DNA from: a virus
Lineage: Duplodnaviria; Heunggongvirae; Uroviricota; Caudoviricetes
Reading direction: 5' to 3' (one strand)
IMG/VR virus record: IMGVR_UViG_2703718829_000001
Length of the DNA: 15,311 bases
In this document: positions 1,716 through 15,311 of the stretch, one piece after another
Layout of the letters: each line of letters starts with the position of its first letter
How positions within the stretch are numbered: the first letter of the stretch is position 1
The notes under the pieces: model-generated
What the model was told of the DNA's origin: nothing
Database searches by the model: none
The model's input: only the letters and a program-made list of their open reading frames with translations
Position numbers and translations under genes: made by a program

Positions 1716-2714
1716 TTAAAGAGCCTCTAAAGGGCTTAAATCGAGTTCTAAGTCTTCTGGTGTTAAATCAGCTAACGGTGCATTCATCCACTGCGATAAA
1801 TCTCGTTCTATGTCTTCATCACTAATGTAGTTGTTCAGATTGATTGCGTTGGTATCATCAAAATACATTGGCTTAGATGGGTTGGTGTGGATGTATTCAT
1901 TGATGAATGATTTAACATCTTTCAGCTTGCTAATCGGTAGCGTTTCTGTGAATCCGCTATTCATTACCTTACGTGGAATTTTCTTGCCCTGAATATTCTT
2001 TTTAATCCCCATTTCTAAATCACCAGCTTTCCATCCAATGTTAAACAAATGTGAGCATTCAAAGGTGATTTTCTCGCTGGTGTGCTTCTGGTGTTCTCTT
2101 ACCCGTTGCATCGGATCTTTGCGAGTGGTAATTCCATATTTGAAAAACTTCTCGCCAACACGAATTAGATAAAAGTGCATAGGGCGCTGTGCAAACTTGT
2201 TTCTGATAACCTGTTTTCTACCATTCTGAATTGATTTAAGTACACCCCTAACCAAAGGGCATGTTAACCCGCCTTGTCTGCGGTTATTGTGTAAATCACC
2301 TTTCTTGTGAATCTTTCCGTGGCACTTACAACGAAGAATTAGTTTAGTGTCAACACCCTGATAAGGTTCAGCCAGACCTAACACATCCCACCCTATCGGC
2401 TTGTAGAACTTGCGAGCGTTTTCTAAGTGTTCTTCTTCGGTAAATCTAAACTTCTTCTTAGGCGGTGATACTCTATCTTTGCCAGTAAACTGACCAGTTA
2501 GAACATGACTAATACATGGCGTTTTAACCTTTCCGTTAACTTCTATGCAAACTTTGGTGTTCTGGAATGGTTTCTTTACAGGAAGCACAAAACCACTGTA
2601 TAACCACCCATGCACTTGACAAACTTTAATGATTCTGGTTTCATATTCGACCGGAGGGGTCGCACGTTTGCTTTTTGTGGTAAATTCGATATCCTTTGCT
2701 AAAGTAGTATTCAT
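1716..2714 (-). CDS. GIY-YIG / T5orf172-like domain protein with a Cys/His-rich N-terminal half (putative nuclease or DNA-binding protein)
   Basis: 332-aa ORF with ATG at 2714 and a GAGGA Shine-Dalgarno about 8 nt upstream. The C-terminal half contains HFYLIRVGEKFFKYGITTRKDPMQRVREH, which fits the GIY-(10-11)-YIG-...-R-..-H/E pattern of GIY-YIG and T5orf172 domains. The N-terminal half has Cys/His clusters (CQVHGW, CKCHGKIH...C) suggesting a zinc finger. Family assignment is by pattern only. Confidence 0.5.
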   Translation of the reverse strand: MNTTLAKDIEFTTKSKRATPPVEYETRIIKVCQVHGWLYSGFVLPVKKPFQNTKVCIEVNGKVKTPCISHVLTGQFTGKDRVSPPKKKFRFTEEEHLENARKFYKPIGWDVLGLAEPYQGVDTKLILRCKCHGKIHKKGDLHNNRRQGGLTCPLVRGVLKSIQNGRKQVIRNKFAQRPMHFYLIRVGEKFFKYGITTRKDPMQRVREHQKHTSEKITFECSHLFNIGWKAGDLEMGIKKNIQGKKIPRKVMNSGFTETLPISKLKDVKSFINEYIHTNPSKPMYFDDTNAINLNNYISDEDIERDLSQWMNAPLADLTPEDLELDLSPLEAL

Positions 2715-2749
2715 AGTAGTGTCCTCGAAAATAATAAGTTCACTACTAT
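2714..2749 (-). promoter_or_regulatory. 9-bp perfect inverted repeat ATAGTAGTG / CACTACTAT spanning the start region of the T5orf172-like gene, with a third direct copy (AGTAGTA) inside the first codons
   Basis: Arms at 2714-2722 and 2741-2749 with an 18-nt spacer containing the GAGGA Shine-Dalgarno. A related copy lies at 2703-2709. No T-run follows, so it is not a terminator; it could be an operator or an RNA structure over the ribosome-binding site. Confidence 0.3.
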
Positions 2750-2758
2750 TTATAAGAA

Positions 2759-3130
2759 TTAATTATTGTAGTTTTGGAAGCCAGTAAGATCGCAAAATGA
2801 ATCAGTGTCATGTGCTGGGGAACGATGCTCTGCTTCGTCGGAGAAAATGTTGGATACCGGAGATTCCACTTTAACTTCCGGTGCTTCTTCAACATCTGAC
2901 TTAACTTCTTCGACCACTGGTTCAACTGCTGGAGATTCTTCTTTTGTTTCTTCAATGACGATCTCAGGTTCTTTCATTGCTTCAACCAGAGACGGATCAA
3001 CTTCGTCGAATACCACTTTATCATCTGCGGTATATTTGTCTATAATGAAAAAATGGTCAGAAATATAGCTAACGTCGCCAGCATATTCTAACAAAAAAGC
3101 GCCCACCAGAGGCGCTTTTGTTTTATCCAT
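2759..3130 (-). CDS. Highly acidic hypothetical protein (Glu/Asp/Pro/Val-rich C-terminal half); start codon uncertain
   Basis: ORF ends with TAA at 2759-2761. Candidate starts are TTG at 3160 (overlaps the upstream gene by 38 nt, no Shine-Dalgarno), ATG at 3130 (Shine-Dalgarno-like GGTGGA but no spacer) and ATG at 2977 (72 aa). The terminator hairpin at 3099-3115 lies inside the two longer versions, so the real protein may be the short form. Translation is strongly acidic (EEPEIVIEETKEESPAVEPVVEEVKSDVEEAPEVKVE...). Confidence 0.4.
   Translation of the reverse strand: MDKTKAPLVGAFLLEYAGDVSYISDHFFIIDKYTADDKVVFDEVDPSLVEAMKEPEIVIEETKEESPAVEPVVEEVKSDVEEAPEVKVESPVSNIFSDEAEHRSPAHDTDSFCDLTGFQNYNN
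3093..3116 (-). terminator. Intrinsic terminator downstream of the peptidase M15 gene
   Basis: On the minus strand: AGCGCC-ucuggug-GGCGCU stem-loop (3099-3116) followed by UUUUU (3093-3097), starting 7 nt after the stop at 3123. An A-run on the other side makes it formally bidirectional. Confidence 0.55.
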
Positions 3131-3476
3131 TCCACCGTGATTTTTTTGATCTGGAATCAATATGCGTAAAGGTTTTATATTTTCCTAAGCCGTATTGAGT
3201 AGGATATTTCCCATCAAGATAAGCATGAACAATATCAGGTGAGACACCCTTGATAACAATGTCAGCCGCACGGCCTCGAACGTGATAGCTGTTGGTTGCA
3301 CCGCCTACATTCTTGTTATGAGTCGGGCAACGGTTGCCACTGTTAATAATTACTGGTTTCCCGAAGTGTTCGCGTACATCCTCAAGAATCACCAGTAATT
3401 CAGCGTCGATTGTATCATAATCACATTTTCCGCATTTACATTTAAATTCCTTGCGAGAAAAATGCTTACTTAACAT
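3123..3476 (-). CDS. Peptidase M15 family protein (zinc D-Ala-D-Ala carboxypeptidase-like); putative endolysin or cell-wall hydrolase
   Basis: 117-aa ORF with ATG at 3476 preceded by TAAGGGGGTAAT. The translation FSRKEFKCKCGKC...GKPVIINSGNRCPTHNKNVGGATNSYHVRGRAADIV matches the small peptidase M15 (YcbK/DUF882-like) pattern SG.R....N...GG...S.H..G.A.D. Confidence 0.75.
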   Translation of the reverse strand: MLSKHFSRKEFKCKCGKCDYDTIDAELLVILEDVREHFGKPVIINSGNRCPTHNKNVGGATNSYHVRGRAADIVIKGVSPDIVHAYLDGKYPTQYGLGKYKTFTHIDSRSKKSRWNG

Positions 3477-9369: not shown

Positions 9370-10023
9370 TTATTTCTTCGATGAATGCCACTTGCTTTCT
9401 GAGTTCCACTTCCCGGCACGGGAGAAGAATAGATCGTTCTCGTTTCCAACATAGGATCGGTGGATACCATCGGAGGCATGACTACGAGCGTTTTTATCTA
9501 GAACTTCCCAGATACTATTAAGCTGAAATTCTGATTCGTTTTTACACTCATCATCTTCATGTTCGATGTTAATCCCGATGGAATCGACTACCCCACGGAA
9601 AACAGGGTAAGTGGTTTCAACCTTGCCCGTGTTAGGGTTCAGGAACACCATTTCGATTTTCACATCAGATTTATCGAATTGCTTGTTTCGAATCAGGGTA
9701 ATGTATTCCTCGCGAACGTTAGAAACGGTTACGTTAATCCCGTTGTTGTTGATCTCCTTCTCTTCGGTATTCGATGAGATTTGAAGAAAATCACCCGTTG
9801 CGAGATATGTAAATCCGTTATAGTCCAAATCGAAATACCCATCTGTAAGCCGTAGAACGTCCCCTGACGCTGTTATCACTTCGATAATGTGAAACATCGA
9901 TCCAGTAGAAAAAAGCTGCGGTAGCGTCAATCTAGACACGTTCTGACCTGTCTGGTCGTTGTAGACCTCGATGAAGTCCAGATTAGTGCATAGTTTGCTG
10001 AATGATTCCTGAATAGTTGCCAT
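9370..10023 (-). CDS. Minor tail protein (gpL-like position), about 217 aa
   Basis: Start chosen at ATG 10023 (MATIQESF...), which overlaps the stop of the upstream gene (ATGTAA-type coupling). The ORF-track N-terminal extension to 10077 is rejected. Assignment rests mainly on position between the M-like and K-like genes; the Cys content is low. Confidence 0.55.
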   Translation of the reverse strand: MATIQESFSKLCTNLDFIEVYNDQTGQNVSRLTLPQLFSTGSMFHIIEVITASGDVLRLTDGYFDLDYNGFTYLATGDFLQISSNTEEKEINNNGINVTVSNVREEYITLIRNKQFDKSDVKIEMVFLNPNTGKVETTYPVFRGVVDSIGINIEHEDDECKNESEFQLNSIWEVLDKNARSHASDGIHRSYVGNENDLFFSRAGKWNSESKWHSSKK

Positions 10024-10633: not shown

Positions 10634-13063
10634 TTACATCTTACGGCGCTGTGCGTCTTCTACCGCCTGAGCAACTAACTTAGCGTGACGTTTGATAGCA
10701 TCCATGACCATCTTGTCTGAGCTATTAACGTTGCCGTTAATGTTCAAAGGCGCATTAACTTCAATCGGCTGAGAGTTGCCACCGCCTGATTTTTGAGCAG
10801 CAAGGAAGTCTTTCAAATCACCGTTAGTACGCTGATCAACTACTCGTTCACCCTTATCAAGCAACCATGTACCCTCACGAGGGATGTTATCAATACCATC
10901 ATGAGCCATACCGCTAACGTTAGTAGACTTGATGTTTGCGATGCTCCCCATGTTCTGAGAAACAGCCAATGCAGCAGCCGCGATTTTTTGACCTGTGGTT
11001 ACGTTGGTCGGATCGTTCCATGCATCGGTAGCAGCCGTCCACATGTTCACCGTCGCTTGTCCAATGGAGAATGCTTTATGAGCAGTGAAAGCCATCTGCA
11101 TAGCTTTAGTGTTTTCCTGCCCGAAGAGAGTCATTGCAGCAGCAAAACCGCCATACATATCATCGGCTATTGACTGTCGAGCATCAGCATATTTCTTCTC
11201 AATTGCAGCCATTCGTTTTTGATGGTTTTCATTGAGTTTTTCTAATGCTTCCATCCGTTTAGCCGGATCATTAATACCGTCAATCTTGAGTTTATCGGTT
11301 TTATAATCTTGTTCCGCTTCCGATTTCTCTTTATCGATTGCATTAAATTTAGCAAACGGGTTATTTGAATCCTGATAGTCTAAGCTATTGGTCAACTGAT
11401 TGGTTTTAAAACCATCCATTCCCTGTAAAGAATTTTCAATCTGAGAATAGTTTTGCTCGGTATCGTTCACACGACGCATATATTCTTCGTAGGAGATAGC
11501 TTTACCATCAAGTAACCGTTTATGGCTTTCTAGCTCGTTGTCCCTTATTTGTTGCAATTGTGTTAAGGCATTCAAAGCATCAACCGGATCAGCACCTAAA
11601 ACCATTTTGTATACGTTTTCAGTATTCTGATCGATTAAGGATTGGCGTTTCGCGGCTGCGTCTTGCTGAGAGATTAAGCCCAGATCTAAAGCAGTGTCCA
11701 AATCTTTCAAGCTGGCTTCTAACTGCTTGTTCTGAGAAGCAATAGACGCGGCGACCTGCCCTTGCAATTTAACATCAAGTGCATTCAGACGCTTGATTGC
11801 ATCCTCACGTTCTTTCTGTGCTTTTTCTGCGGCTTCCTTAGCCTTTTTAGCTGCCTCTTCCGCTTTCTTGCGTGCTTCTTCTTCGGCTTTCTTCTCATTG
11901 CCAGACTTACCCAATGATTCTGGTCTTACTGGTTTATTTGGTATAGTCAAATCACGGTTAGGATCTGCCTTGCGAGTTAGATGTTCCCCGTTATCGACAA
12001 CAATCAGAGAGCCATTTTTCTTATAAGAATCACCAAAACGTTTCTTAAATCCTTCAACATCAAAGCCAGCAGTACGAGGATCGACACCAGCACCACGGAT
12101 CGCGGCCTTTTCCCAATCTGCCAGATTATTCCAACGCTTTTCTTTATTGTACTTGTCAATAATTTTTTGAGCGTCTTTATGGTTGGCGTTAAGAATACCG
12201 CCAGTTGCGGTCTTGCCTTCTTTATTCAGTCGATCTAATGCCCTGAATAGAGAACTCTTTTCCCAATCAATATTAAACCAGTCAAATAACCAGTTTAAAC
12301 TATCAACCAGCGGACCAGTAATGGTCATGCCGACCCCTTTCAGGTTATTTTCCAGCTTATTGATATTTTGAGAAAATTTATCATATTTTTTAGCGTTTTC
12401 TTCGGTGACGTTAACAGATTGATTCTGAATAGCGATCATCGCCTCTTGAGCACTATTATATTTCTCAAGCTGGCTGGTCATATGGCTTGAATCACTGGCT
12501 AAAGATTCCATCATGAACTTGATTTCAGCCATTGATTTTCCGGCTTTCTTCATGTCATAGAACACTTGGATCGCCGCTTTCATACCACCTTGCGGATCTG
12601 TCATGAAGTGAGCATAGTTTTCTAACTTAAGACCAACCGATTCTAAGTCATCAGCAATACCACCACCATTAGCCCACGCATCACCCATTTTATCTAAGGT
12701 GTCTTTGTTGATATCGCCAAATTTTTCAACTGTTAGGCCAGTGCCAGAAAATTCCTTTTCTAGTCTTTGAAGGGATTCAATCGAGAGTCCGGTCGCCTTA
12801 GATACTTCTGAATACTGTTTAACGTATTCCGCGCCAGCTTTAGCGGCTGCAACCACTGCGGTCGCAACTAAGCCGATACCACCAGCAGCCAAACCAGCAG
12901 AGCCAGCGATCCCACGAAGAGATCCAGTCAGACCAGATAAGCCACCACCAAAATCAATATTACTTGCCTTTTCAGACAAACGATCGAGAAGGTCGGCGGC
13001 TTCATTGGTACTTCTCCTTAGACCTTTATTATCCCCTTCTATTGTTACTATATGTCTTGTCAT
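10634..13063 (-). CDS. Tail tape measure protein (809 aa)
   Basis: Large ORF directly downstream of the chaperone pair, with ATG at 13063. It has a Gly-rich hydrophobic N-terminal segment and a long Lys/Glu/Ala-rich coiled coil (KKAEEEARKKAEEAAKKAKEAAEKAQKERED), typical of tape measure proteins. By the rough 0.15 nm per residue rule the tail would be about 120 nm. Confidence 0.88.
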   Translation of the reverse strand: MTRHIVTIEGDNKGLRRSTNEAADLLDRLSEKASNIDFGGGLSGLTGSLRGIAGSAGLAAGGIGLVATAVVAAAKAGAEYVKQYSEVSKATGLSIESLQRLEKEFSGTGLTVEKFGDINKDTLDKMGDAWANGGGIADDLESVGLKLENYAHFMTDPQGGMKAAIQVFYDMKKAGKSMAEIKFMMESLASDSSHMTSQLEKYNSAQEAMIAIQNQSVNVTEENAKKYDKFSQNINKLENNLKGVGMTITGPLVDSLNWLFDWFNIDWEKSSLFRALDRLNKEGKTATGGILNANHKDAQKIIDKYNKEKRWNNLADWEKAAIRGAGVDPRTAGFDVEGFKKRFGDSYKKNGSLIVVDNGEHLTRKADPNRDLTIPNKPVRPESLGKSGNEKKAEEEARKKAEEAAKKAKEAAEKAQKEREDAIKRLNALDVKLQGQVAASIASQNKQLEASLKDLDTALDLGLISQQDAAAKRQSLIDQNTENVYKMVLGADPVDALNALTQLQQIRDNELESHKRLLDGKAISYEEYMRRVNDTEQNYSQIENSLQGMDGFKTNQLTNSLDYQDSNNPFAKFNAIDKEKSEAEQDYKTDKLKIDGINDPAKRMEALEKLNENHQKRMAAIEKKYADARQSIADDMYGGFAAAMTLFGQENTKAMQMAFTAHKAFSIGQATVNMWTAATDAWNDPTNVTTGQKIAAAALAVSQNMGSIANIKSTNVSGMAHDGIDNIPREGTWLLDKGERVVDQRTNGDLKDFLAAQKSGGGNSQPIEVNAPLNINGNVNSSDKMVMDAIKRHAKLVAQAVEDAQRRKM

Positions 13064-13066
13064 AAA

Positions 13067-13417
13067 TTACCCCGTTTGTGCGCTTCTGAGTTTCTCAAGC
13101 AAAGATGGATCGAACATGCTCAATGTTGCAGCTTTACGTTCTTCTTCTTTCTTGCGTGCAAGTTCTTCCAGTTCTTCTTTAGTTTTAAAGAGTTTTTCTT
13201 CTCTAATTAATTGGAATTGGCTAGGCTTGAGTTTACGTGCAGTTTCACGAGTCATTCCTTGCGACGTCATATACATGGAATATTGCAACATCGCATTCTG
13301 CATATCATGAAACGCGGGGCTTTGTGGTTCTAAGTAGGTGTCGAAAATGTATAATTTCCAAAACAGAGTGATTGGCATATTATCCATTTCATCTTTACTA
13401 AGCCCCGATCTCATCAT
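13067..13417 (-). CDS. Tail assembly chaperone, gpT-like second ORF (possibly expressed as a G-T fusion by -1 frameshift)
   Basis: 116-aa ORF between the G-like ORF and the tape measure gene, with no convincing Shine-Dalgarno before its ATG ATG at 13417. Its frame is -1 relative to the G-like ORF and open over the last ~15 nt of that ORF. C-terminal charged helix (KTKEELEELARKKEEERK). Confidence 0.55.
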   Translation of the reverse strand: MMRSGLSKDEMDNMPITLFWKLYIFDTYLEPQSPAFHDMQNAMLQYSMYMTSQGMTRETARKLKPSQFQLIREEKLFKTKEELEELARKKEEERKAATLSMFDPSLLEKLRSAQTG

Positions 13418-13446
13418 TTGCCGAAAGTAGAAATTCAGAAGCGGGT

Positions 13447-13755
13447 TTACTTTACCTCGTTTTCAATTACTGCCGGATCTTGCATCAATGATGCTTGAGC
13501 AACCAAACCGATTAATTCACTTCGAACGTTAGTATACAGTGCCTTAACTTGTTCCATAGATTCAAATACTGGCTTGCCGTCTTCATCTTCAATACAACGA
13601 AGAATAGAACGTTCATCACGGTCTTCTTTATCAGTATTGAAAACATGTTCATTAAATTCTTTTACTGACATAGGGCGAGCATAGAAAGTGAATCCACCGA
13701 TGGTCAAAGATTCGCGTTTCGGAGAGAGTGCGGCTAACATTTCGTTAATATTCAT
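13447..13755 (-). CDS. Tail assembly chaperone, gpG-like (102 aa)
   Basis: ATG at 13755 with a strong AGAGGAAA Shine-Dalgarno. Small acidic protein immediately after the tube gene and its terminator, the canonical position of the G chaperone. Confidence 0.6.
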   Translation of the reverse strand: MNINEMLAALSPKRESLTIGGFTFYARPMSVKEFNEHVFNTDKEDRDERSILRCIEDEDGKPVFESMEQVKALYTNVRSELIGLVAQASLMQDPAVIENEVK

Positions 13756-13800
13756 TATTGTTTCCTCTTAAGTTAATTCGATATGTTTATTTAGAATTGG

Positions 13801-13829
13801 AAACAAAAAAGCCACCCCGAAGGATGGCT
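13801..13829 (-). terminator. Intrinsic terminator after the major tail tube gene
   Basis: Minus-strand RNA reads GCCAUCC-UUCG-GGGUGGC followed by UUUUUUGUUU, starting 8 nt after the stop at 13838. Textbook hairpin with a UUCG tetraloop and a U-run. Confidence 0.75.
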
Positions 13830-13837
13830 AGATAATA

Positions 13838-14308
13838 TTAGAGTTTCTGGAAAACAGCTTGTTTAACCGGAGCACCATCTACTACAAAGGTGAAGGTACG
13901 GCCTACTACAGCATCCTCACCACCAGTCATGGTAGTTTTAGACAGGAAGCCGTTATAAGCGATATGTACACCAGATTTTTTCGTAGCATCGATGTAGTAA
14001 GCAATTTTAAGCTGTACGCGCTTACCGTCTTCGGTTGCTTTAATCAGTTTTTCGTGTACTTCGTTACCCGGCATGTAGTTGATCGAAAGTTCGATATCCG
14101 GTACAGACATACGACCAACCAGCTTACGGTTATAAGCACCAGAGAAGTTAGGAACATCGATCGTAGAACGTTCTACACCAGTTTCCGGGAACGCTGCGCA
14201 TTCTGGGATTTCCAGATAGGTTTCAGCATCAAGGTCTTTATTGCTTACGTCTTCTTGCAGAAACAGACCAACGAGGCCACCAGAGAAAATATCAAATTTA
14301 GTAGTCAT
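13838..14308 (-). CDS. Major tail tube protein (gpV-like tube domain, no Ig-like C-terminal extension)
   Basis: 156-aa ORF with ATG at 14308 and an AAGGAAAAG Shine-Dalgarno. It lies upstream of the chaperone pair and tape measure gene and is followed by a strong terminator. Segments NYMPGNEV / KRVQLKIAYY / VGRTFTFVVDG resemble the lambda gpV tube domain as recalled. Confidence 0.75.
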   Translation of the reverse strand: MTTKFDIFSGGLVGLFLQEDVSNKDLDAETYLEIPECAAFPETGVERSTIDVPNFSGAYNRKLVGRMSVPDIELSINYMPGNEVHEKLIKATEDGKRVQLKIAYYIDATKKSGVHIAYNGFLSKTTMTGGEDAVVGRTFTFVVDGAPVKQAVFQKL

Positions 14309-14362
14309 TATTCTTTTCCTTCTATTTTAAACAATAGGGCACATACCCGTAATTCTATTTAT

Positions 14363-14665
14363 TTAGCGGTTGCTCAAACGTCTATAACGAAGATGAGCGA
14401 CCCCCCTATTTGTGCTAACGGTAATTACCGCCCCTTGCGGTGCAATACAAGAATGAATCTGTCCCCAATCATGACCCTTATGACTTCCAGACACACAAAA
14501 GCCATGCAAAAGCAATTCTGAGTCACCACCGCCACCACCAGAAGAACTAGCACCAAATGAAACCGTACCGAAAGCGTCGGCTGTCCAACCGTTAGGAATA
14601 TCAAACCATCCCTGATTAGCTTTACCGGCTTTATTGTCTAAAACGCCATACACCCAATATCCCAT
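14363..14665 (-). CDS. Glycine-rich small protein, paralog 3 of 3 (100 aa), function unknown
   Basis: ATG at 14665 with an AGGAG Shine-Dalgarno 9 nt upstream; the start overlaps the stop of paralog 2. Shares MGYWV, WFDIPNGW, a poly-Gly run and a basic/aromatic C-terminus with its two neighbours. Confidence 0.7.
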   Translation of the reverse strand: MGYWVYGVLDNKAGKANQGWFDIPNGWTADAFGTVSFGASSSGGGGGDSELLLHGFCVSGSHKGHDWGQIHSCIAPQGAVITVSTNRGVAHLRYRRLSNR

Positions 14666-14970
14666 TAATGCATTCTCCTAAATTGGAAGTGGTTTAAACT
14701 TCCTTTACCAATGCTAAAACTGACAGTAGCACCAACACCAACTAAAGAACTAGCTCCCCAACTTCCGGCATTACCAGCGTGATGACCTGATTCGAGAGTA
14801 CCGTTTACATATAATTCGGCGTCCAAGTCACCTCCACCGCCAACGGCTTCGGCATGAACAGACACAATACCGCATGAATCCGTCACCCAACCATTAGGGA
14901 TACCAAACCAGCCGCCATTAGCATAAATGCTAATAGCATTAGCCATTCTTCCAGCAACCCAACCAGCCAT
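14665..14970 (-). CDS. Glycine-rich small protein, paralog 2 of 3 (101 aa), function unknown
   Basis: ATG at 14970 with a GGAG Shine-Dalgarno 8 nt upstream; 2 nt after the stop of paralog 1. Motifs MAGWV, WFGIPNGW, GGGG. Confidence 0.7.
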   Translation of the reverse strand: MAGWVAGRMANAISIYANGGWFGIPNGWVTDSCGIVSVHAEAVGGGGDLDAELYVNGTLESGHHAGNAGSWGASSLVGVGATVSFSIGKGSLNHFQFRRMH

Positions 14971-14972
14971 AA

Positions 14973-15269
14973 TTAAAACTCCATAAATTTAAAGTATTCA
15001 ATACCACCGACACCCCCATGACCAAAGGTGACAGTACATCCAGCAGGAACAAACGCATTAACCGTAAATCCCCAATCCCCACCACCACGACGACGCGCGG
15101 CGACCATACCGTCAACGGAAATATGCATATCGCCCCAACCATCACGAGCGGTATGCCGCAAAACGGCAACACCAGCACGACCGGGTACATATCCATTAGG
15201 AATATCAAAAACATGCCATTTTACAGCATCTATTTTAGTGCCTTGTTCATTACTTACCCAATAGCCCAT
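14973..15269 (-). CDS. Glycine-rich small protein, paralog 1 of 3 (98 aa), function unknown
   Basis: ATG at 15269 with an AAGGA Shine-Dalgarno 6 nt upstream. Motifs MGYWV, FDIPNGY, RRRGGGDWG. The most divergent of the three. Confidence 0.65.
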   Translation of the reverse strand: MGYWVSNEQGTKIDAVKWHVFDIPNGYVPGRAGVAVLRHTARDGWGDMHISVDGMVAARRRGGGDWGFTVNAFVPAGCTVTFGHGGVGGIEYFKFMEF

Positions 15270-15311
15270 TTAAGATCCTTAGCGGGGATTTCTCCCATAA
15301 GCGCTAACTTA

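Follow-up and report, generated by a model that had tools for sequence, protein, structure and literature searches.

The distal tip of the long tail fiber decides the host bacteria of T-even-type phages, and two solutions for building this tip are well studied, the gp37 needle of T4 and the gp38 adhesin of T2 and S16. In the DNA examined here (the window, a stretch of 15,311 nt that belongs to an E. coli chromosomal prophage with integration by a serine recombinase), three adjacent genes for small, glycine-rich proteins lie beside the tail tube gene. The question that these genes (A, B, and C, together the triplet) raise is whether their products belong to the junction of head and tail, as their place in the window had suggested, or to the tip of a tail fiber.

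Organization, paralogy, and selection of the triplet genes

The triplet genes are encoded on the minus strand within positions 14363 to 15269 and occupy three different reading frames, with gene A at 14973 to 15269 (ORF of 98 aa), gene B at 14665 to 14970 (101 aa), and gene C at 14363 to 14665 (100 aa). Shine-Dalgarno sequences were located for all three (AAGGA, 6 nt 5' of the ATG of gene A; GGAG for gene B; AGGAG for gene C), and these ORFs and sites bore out the initial annotation, in which three adjacent small genes in three frames, each with its own Shine-Dalgarno sequence, had been described. Translational coupling, also proposed there, is plausible, with 2 nt between the stop codon of A and the start codon of B and an overlap (TAATG) between the stop codon of B and the start codon of C.

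Pairwise BLASTP comparisons aligned C with B at 41% identity (E = 2e-18), C with A at 29% identity (E = 5e-9), and B with A at 33% identity (E = 5e-8), so that the shared motifs noted earlier lie far beyond chance (E values from 2e-18 to 5e-8). Columns invariant in A, B, and C include M1, W4, F21, I-P-N-G (residues 23 to 26), G33, and G55, and the three proteins have in common one Gly run each and an aromatic/basic C-terminal strand. Separate orthologous groups of A, B, and C were retained in E. coli, Salmonella, and metagenomic loci down to ~25 to 45% identity, in agreement with the old tandem paralogy that had been suspected; by sequence comparison, A, B, and C are old paralogs. The A group always ends in ...F(M/Q/I)E(F/M/L). 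Gene B is 97% identical to QBO62409 of phage G2248, and its counterparts in Salmonella and metagenomic loci have N-terminal extensions (105 to 130 aa). Orthologs of gene C contain an invariant core, GGDSEL...CVSG.H.G.D.G..HSC; this Cys/His-rich core is lacking in A and B and could be a metal site or a disulfide. A reading of the "GDSEL" of gene C as a GDSL hydrolase motif was dropped, since neither the size nor the fold fits an SGNH hydrolase.

The GC content of the triplet is 46 to 47%, compared to 38 to 40% in the chaperone genes. The initial annotation was right that the triplet is richer in GC than the chaperone genes and that Gly codons inflate the value, but its range of 46 to 56% narrows to 46 to 47%. 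The GC content at third codon positions (GC3) is 0.30 to 0.35, below the 0.38 to 0.41 of the neighboring genes, and the GC excess is therefore due to Gly, Trp, and Ala codons, with Gly making up 18 to 20% of the triplet proteins. A foreign origin read from the raised GC content was rejected on the same grounds, GC3 being below that of the neighbors. Ratios of dN/dS across orthologs were 0.05 to 0.45 (mostly 0.12 to 0.33 where dS was >1), with 0.24 to 0.45 for gene A, 0.05 to 0.33 for gene B, and 0.12 to 0.22 for gene C; the triplet genes are real genes under purifying selection. The variable stretches of the proteins are the Gly-rich loop (approximately residues 37 to 50) and residues 76 to 88. 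By sequence, A, B, and C are soluble proteins, with no signal peptide, lipobox, or membrane segment found in them.

The window edge and the gene upstream of the triplet

As described earlier, the tail tube gene adjoins the triplet directly downstream (13838 to 14308, minus strand; PHROG 158, E = 8e-20; Pfam lambda-type TTP, E = 5e-5). It marks the 3' end of a variable fiber-accessory slot; in relatives, what comes immediately before it is the triplet, gp38, or the fiber gene itself. At the other side of the triplet, the window ends inside an insertion element: positions 15297 to 15311 are the terminal inverted repeat of IS421, an IS4-family element (ATAAGCGCTAACTTA), which in strain BS74R-D runs on into an annotated IS421 transposase gene. 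A duplicated target, GGGATTTCTCCC, is present at both IS421 junctions in BS74R-D, and most genomic matches to the window end at position 15296. The element cuts a hairpin, GCGGGGATTTCTCCCCGC, that lies between the stop codon of the fiber gene and gene A and of which the left half remains at 15282 to 15296 (minus strand). This hairpin carries a terminator annotation in phage G2248; it is intact in UTME-12 and G2248 and broken in the window and BS74R-D. The IS421 insertion uncouples the triplet from the fiber gene in the strain from which the window derives, and the same insertion is present in BS74R-D.

In uninterrupted relatives, the gene just upstream of A encodes a gp37-type long tail fiber of 1,235 aa (PHROG 1699, "long tail fiber protein distal subunit," E = 1.5e-120; Pfam Gp34_trimer and gp37_trimer) with a C-terminal Peptidase_S74 intramolecular chaperone domain, and the small postcapsid genes lie farther upstream than this fiber gene. 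The head-tail joining slot to which the triplet had been assigned is thus an artifact of the window edge, where the end of IS421 hides the fiber gene. The accompanying remark that the proteins do not resemble head-tail joining proteins held, with no match to connector or terminator families in Pfam, PHROGs, or NCBIfam; nor did the triplet lie between head genes and tail tube gene in all relatives, as would be expected of joining or terminator proteins.

A 277-aa gene located 5' of the fiber gene (UTME-12, L005 22090-22923) encodes a second tail-tube-like protein (PHROG 158, E = 1e-8), from which it follows that the fiber-plus-triplet module is flanked by two tube paralogs. This is an unusual place for a long-fiber gene in a siphovirus-type tail operon. 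Downstream, between the stop codon of the tail tube gene and the chaperone gene, a stretch of 39 nt (13801 to 13839) is 94.9% identical to sequence of the T4-like phage G2494, where a terminator is annotated over the match; G5211 has the stretch too, without annotation there. Elsewhere in the tail region, a NUMOD3 DNA-binding/homing-endonuclease-like gene (L020 1686-2459) lies between the DUF6950 and DUF2163 tail genes in some related prophages (DEC5A, 14EC017, PK8568, and ETEC1703) and is absent from the window (corresponding region, approximately 9370 to 9480). The cargo between the serine recombinase and endolysin genes (window positions 1716 to 3160) differs among relatives and consists of a 332-aa ORF here, a GIY-YIG nuclease and a DEAD/DEAH helicase in UTME-12, and a GIY-YIG nuclease in BS74R-D.

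The same slot in Krischvirus phages and sister prophages

Megablast comparison of window positions 13000 to 15311 with 50,697 phage records returned the triplet block (approximately 14363 to 15297) and, apart from the 39-nt stretch noted above, nothing else. Identity of the block at the DNA level was 92% to vB_EcoM_G2248, 88% to UPWr_E1, and 83% to vB_EcoM_G37-3, all of them T4-like E. coli myoviruses of the genus Krischvirus. The gene order was the same in all three phages, with the distal long-tail-fiber gene (gp37 position) followed by the triplet, a small ORF, and the holin gene. In T2-type phages and most Krischviruses, the slot after gp37 holds gp38 (PMC12032242, PMC10844046). No gp38 homolog was detected in the 170.7-kb genome of G2248 (tblastn, best E = 0.5; positive control, E = 2e-167).

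Within one prophage backbone, the slot held the triplet, a T2-type gp38 adhesin, or nothing, and the sister prophages with an empty slot had otherwise identical head and tail modules. The triplet was present in 22 of 5,426 complete E. coli genomes as two sequence types that were ~82% identical to each other. The prophages of TO6 and ETEC4085 carry a genuine T2-type gp38 in the slot (Pfam GP38, E = 1e-69; Gp38_N, E = 6e-19; PHROG 2056, E = 9e-107), followed by a 70-aa ORF (in TO6, L006 17363-17575) that begins with MVYNIIIGA, as does the Krischvirus ORF 3' of the triplet, and is fused from there to the last two-thirds of gene C. This ORF is a recombination scar and shows that A, B, and part of C were overwritten by a T-even-derived gp38 cassette. 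KFS-EC carries a truncated hybrid of 107 aa (L007 5118-5441), in which an A-type N terminus passes at the Gly run into a fragment of C. The scars in TO6 and KFS-EC record exchange of T4-like phages with prophages and recombination of the paralogs with one another. Genes annotated as "receptor-recognizing protein" (gp38 type) were also seen on 26 E. coli plasmids of ~105 to 220 kb, possibly phage-plasmids, which suggests that gp38-type adhesins are used outside T-even phages too.

Covariation of the slot with the fiber tip

Fiber tips were typed on the 160 residues before the S74 cleavage site (IR|SD). Tip type I comprised four triplet-associated fibers (UTME-12, BS74R-D, G2248, and UPWr_E1) with an extra distal domain of ~90 residues, recognizable by the motif GDNDTGL.WGGDGRIN...YST.VRDIYIR and homologous to the gp37 chain of PDB 6F45, the gp37-gp38 adhesin-tip complex of S16 (E = 4.5e-45). 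Fibers with tip type II stood beside the triplet in six Salmonella prophages, two metagenomic contigs, and phage G37-3 and beside gp38 in TO6; the triplet and gp38 are therefore interchangeable partners of the same kinds of fiber tip. Two more tip types (L012 and L017) accompanied the triplet. The KFS-EC fiber, beside the truncated A/C hybrid, is without the distal domain, and the triplet is lost or decays when the fiber is without a distal docking domain.

The content of the slot thus covaries with fiber-tip type. DNA shared between prophages and Krischviruses consisted of the triplet and the 3' ~600 bp of the fiber gene (89% identity), and because it spans the 3' end of the fiber gene, the mobile unit is the fiber end together with the triplet. 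Fiber tip and triplet have been exchanged together between temperate siphovirus-like prophages and lytic T4-like Krischviruses.

Size of the family and constancy of the set

A word-indexed profile search of 5.8 billion proteins returned 32 clusters, which were confined to Escherichia, Shigella, or Salmonella. When 1.84 billion representatives were searched exhaustively with HMMER, 19 matches were obtained, 15 of them ~100 aa long; the four large ones were rejected as repeat proteins whose scores were summed over many short stretches. The same exhaustive search revealed no fiber with a fused knob resembling A, B, or C. Scans of A, B, and C against Pfam, PHROGs, and NCBIfam gave no usable match, no description of the family was found in the searchable literature, and among phage isolates a family member was present in 4 phages in 50,697 records (tblastn with A, B, and C). 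This is a very small, enterobacterial family with no annotation on any of its members. Past g37, in the place of g38, the distant T4-type phages RB49 and Aeh1 have small ORFs of unknown function, which have been proposed as possible novel adhesins or chaperones (Trojet et al. 2011, PMC3157838); the RB49 ORF was considered as a family member and rejected, as no RB49 record was among the four tblastn matches.

Intact sets had exactly three genes, in the order A-B-C and after an S74-bearing fiber, in 16 of 16 loci, including metagenomic relatives at ~25 to 45% identity. Adjacent genes were separated by gaps of 1 to 2 nt or overlapped in 11 of the 12 loci in which junctions were measured. Comparison of synteny thus showed a copy number constant at three in every intact locus, with KFS-EC as the sole locus with fewer copies.

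Predicted structure

AlphaFold2 models of C (pLDDT, 84.7; pTM, 0.74) and A (pLDDT, 83.8; pTM, 0.69) agree in an N-terminal helix (approximately residues 2 to 12, predicted at lower confidence) followed by a seven-stranded beta-sandwich. Foldseek comparison with the PDB returned nothing below an E value of 1e-3, and comparison with BFVD returned weak matches (best E = 5e-4), of which the named ones were mainly tail fibers and collagen-repeat or C1q-domain viral proteins. The predicted fold would be a small jelly roll of the type seen in trimeric receptor-binding knobs, with TNF/C1q trimers as the nearest neighbors at modest scores, and is taken as a lead only. The only match of the triplet profile to PDB sequences, those of designed Pizza propellers, was rejected as spurious, since it consisted of a repeated 22-residue "PNG..DSAG" unit with no single significant stretch.

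Relationship to gp38 and to jelly-roll trimers

The initial annotation had compared the glycine-rich motifs of the triplet, speculatively, with T-even gp38-type adhesins. As a resemblance between proteins, the comparison failed: alignment of the triplet family profile with true gp38 gave a probability of 0.4% (hhalign), and A, B, and C matched neither the GP38 (PF05268) nor the Gp38_N (PF21721) profile (positive control, TO6 gp38, E = 1e-69). T2/S16 gp38 (PDB 6F45) is one monomer of ~260 aa with an attachment domain, a beta-helix, and a polyglycine-II sandwich built from five glycine-rich motifs and four hypervariable segments, whereas the triplet consists of three proteins of ~100 aa with one Gly run each and a predicted seven-stranded jelly-roll sandwich. 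As an analogy of function drawn from position, it stood. Like gp38, the triplet is encoded directly after a gp37-type fiber with a C-terminal S74 chaperone domain that is presumably cleaved off; the two alternate in one slot within a single prophage lineage and within the genus Krischvirus, and the fiber tip that accompanies the triplet is homologous to the S16 gp37 tip on which gp38 docks. Both are also rich in Gly and Trp, with conserved parts around variable segments. The triplet is gp38-like in position, partner, and exchangeability but outside the gp38 family, and is probably a trans-acting fiber-tip module from an uncharacterized family.

Among jelly-roll trimers, the C1q A/B/C globular head and lymphotoxin a1b2 resemble the triplet in predicted fold only and at modest scores; C1q/TNF domains have ~130 residues, compared to a sandwich of ~85 residues in the triplet models, and the sequences showed no similarity. 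The knob of known phage and viral fibers is fused to the shaft, whereas the triplet is encoded separately, and we know of no phage fiber tip made of three different chains.

Proposed role and alternative explanations

The triplet is likely to be an accessory module of the fiber tip equivalent to gp38. In the model that we propose, A, B, and C would be made in equal amounts from one translationally coupled mini-operon after the fiber gene. The fiber would trimerize with the help of its own C-terminal Peptidase_S74 domain, which would then cleave itself from the fiber at the conserved IR|SD site, exposing the distal tip; the domain itself is observed, and its self-cleavage is inferred by analogy with endosialidase-type intramolecular chaperones and T2/S16 gp37, on which this step is based. 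A, B, and C would then assemble on the trimeric tip, most likely as a heterotrimer that contains each of them once. Attachment may be through the conserved IPNGW face and the N-terminal helices, which are poorly ordered, with the variable Gly-rich loops pointing outward to the host receptor. The triplet would in this way take the role of the monomeric gp38 adhesin in T2 and S16, and fiber tip and triplet would move as a host-range cassette. We infer the presence of A, B, and C in the virion, the 1:1:1 stoichiometry, the mode of attachment, and receptor binding. A heterotrimer is favored over independent copies because of the strict retention and fixed order of all three genes, the ortholog-specific C-terminal strands, and the trimeric state of both the fiber and the nearest structural neighbors. 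The model as a whole, in which A, B, and C sit on the fiber tip, probably as a 1:1:1 heterotrimeric adhesin cap that replaces gp38 in its role, has about an even chance of being correct. Its most specific form is put forward tentatively: a 1:1:1 heterotrimeric jelly-roll knob, encoded apart from the fiber, that clips onto the three-fold fiber tip after self-cleavage of the chaperone and is swapped together with the tip between temperate siphoviruses and lytic T4-like myoviruses. Such a knob would give the fiber a modular receptor-binding head that is asymmetric, has three different sets of loops, and is unrelated to gp38.

The main rival explanation is that A, B, and C are fiber-specific assembly chaperones, in the manner of T4 gp38/gp57A or lambda Tfa, that aid folding or trimerization of the distal tip domain and are afterward released and absent from the virion. 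A gene immediately 3' of the fiber gene and specificity for the distal end are typical of T4-type gp38, lambda Tfa, and Mu U, and the triplet was found only with fibers having an extra distal domain; moreover, the choice between adhesin and chaperone was left open for the small ORFs after g37 (Trojet et al., PMC3157838). Yet every triplet-associated fiber already carries an intramolecular S74 chaperone, and the element with which the triplet alternates is the adhesin type of gp38 rather than the chaperone type. No similarity to the Tfa/gp38-chaperone families was found in Pfam, PHROGs, or NCBIfam, the triplet has three paralogs where those systems have one protein, and a predicted jelly roll whose loops are hypervariable would be expected more in a binding head than in a chaperone, so that a chaperone role is rather unlikely. 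The positional evidence for the heterotrimeric cap applies equally to A, B, and C as independent proteins, either three alternative homotrimeric tips or separate adhesins with several receptor specificities; TNF/C1q-type domains are commonly homotrimeric, and the paralogs differ most in the presumed exposed loops. Independence would lead one to expect varying copy number or order, against the uniform, mostly tightly coupled A-B-C sets described above and a conserved C-terminal strand peculiar to each orthologous group, and the only low-copy locus, KFS-EC, is a truncated hybrid beside a fiber without the distal domain. We regard independent action as improbable.

That the triplet is unrelated cargo (a moron, superinfection exclusion, or antidefense function) hitchhiking beside the fiber gene would agree with a small, unannotated family that is horizontally mobile between unrelated phages, and exclusion genes are sometimes linked to receptor-binding protein genes, as with llp of T5 and cor of phi80. 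Against such cargo stand the lack of a signal peptide, lipobox, or membrane segment in A, B, and C, the S74-type fiber in every triplet locus seen, loss or decay exactly where the tip type changes, a mobile unit that takes in the 3' end of the fiber gene, and a location within the late structural operon; this explanation is very improbable. The placement in the initial annotation, with A, B, and C as head-tail joining, connector, or tail terminator proteins, drew on the small size of the genes and on their place in the window, next to the tail tube gene on its upstream side. Besides the hidden fiber gene and the lack of a family match, the same genes follow gp37 in T4-like myoviruses, whose neck differs greatly, and prophages entirely without the triplet have otherwise identical head and tail modules. 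The empty-slot prophages and the Krischvirus context already refute this placement, and its probability is negligible.

Implications

The triplet locus points to a third solution for the fiber tip, an unannotated family that is always encoded as three paralogs. If this reading is true, the triplet would be a previously undescribed determinant of host range and probably the receptor-binding tip of the fiber. Confirmation would provide phage engineers with a new exchangeable host-range cassette and would explain the host ranges of Krischviruses without gp38, such as G2248. The triplet has moved, at 83 to 92% DNA identity, between lytic Krischviruses of the therapeutic type and resident E. coli prophages, and its role, if confirmed, would make it a tangible case of virulent phages drawing receptor-binding modules from a prophage reservoir.
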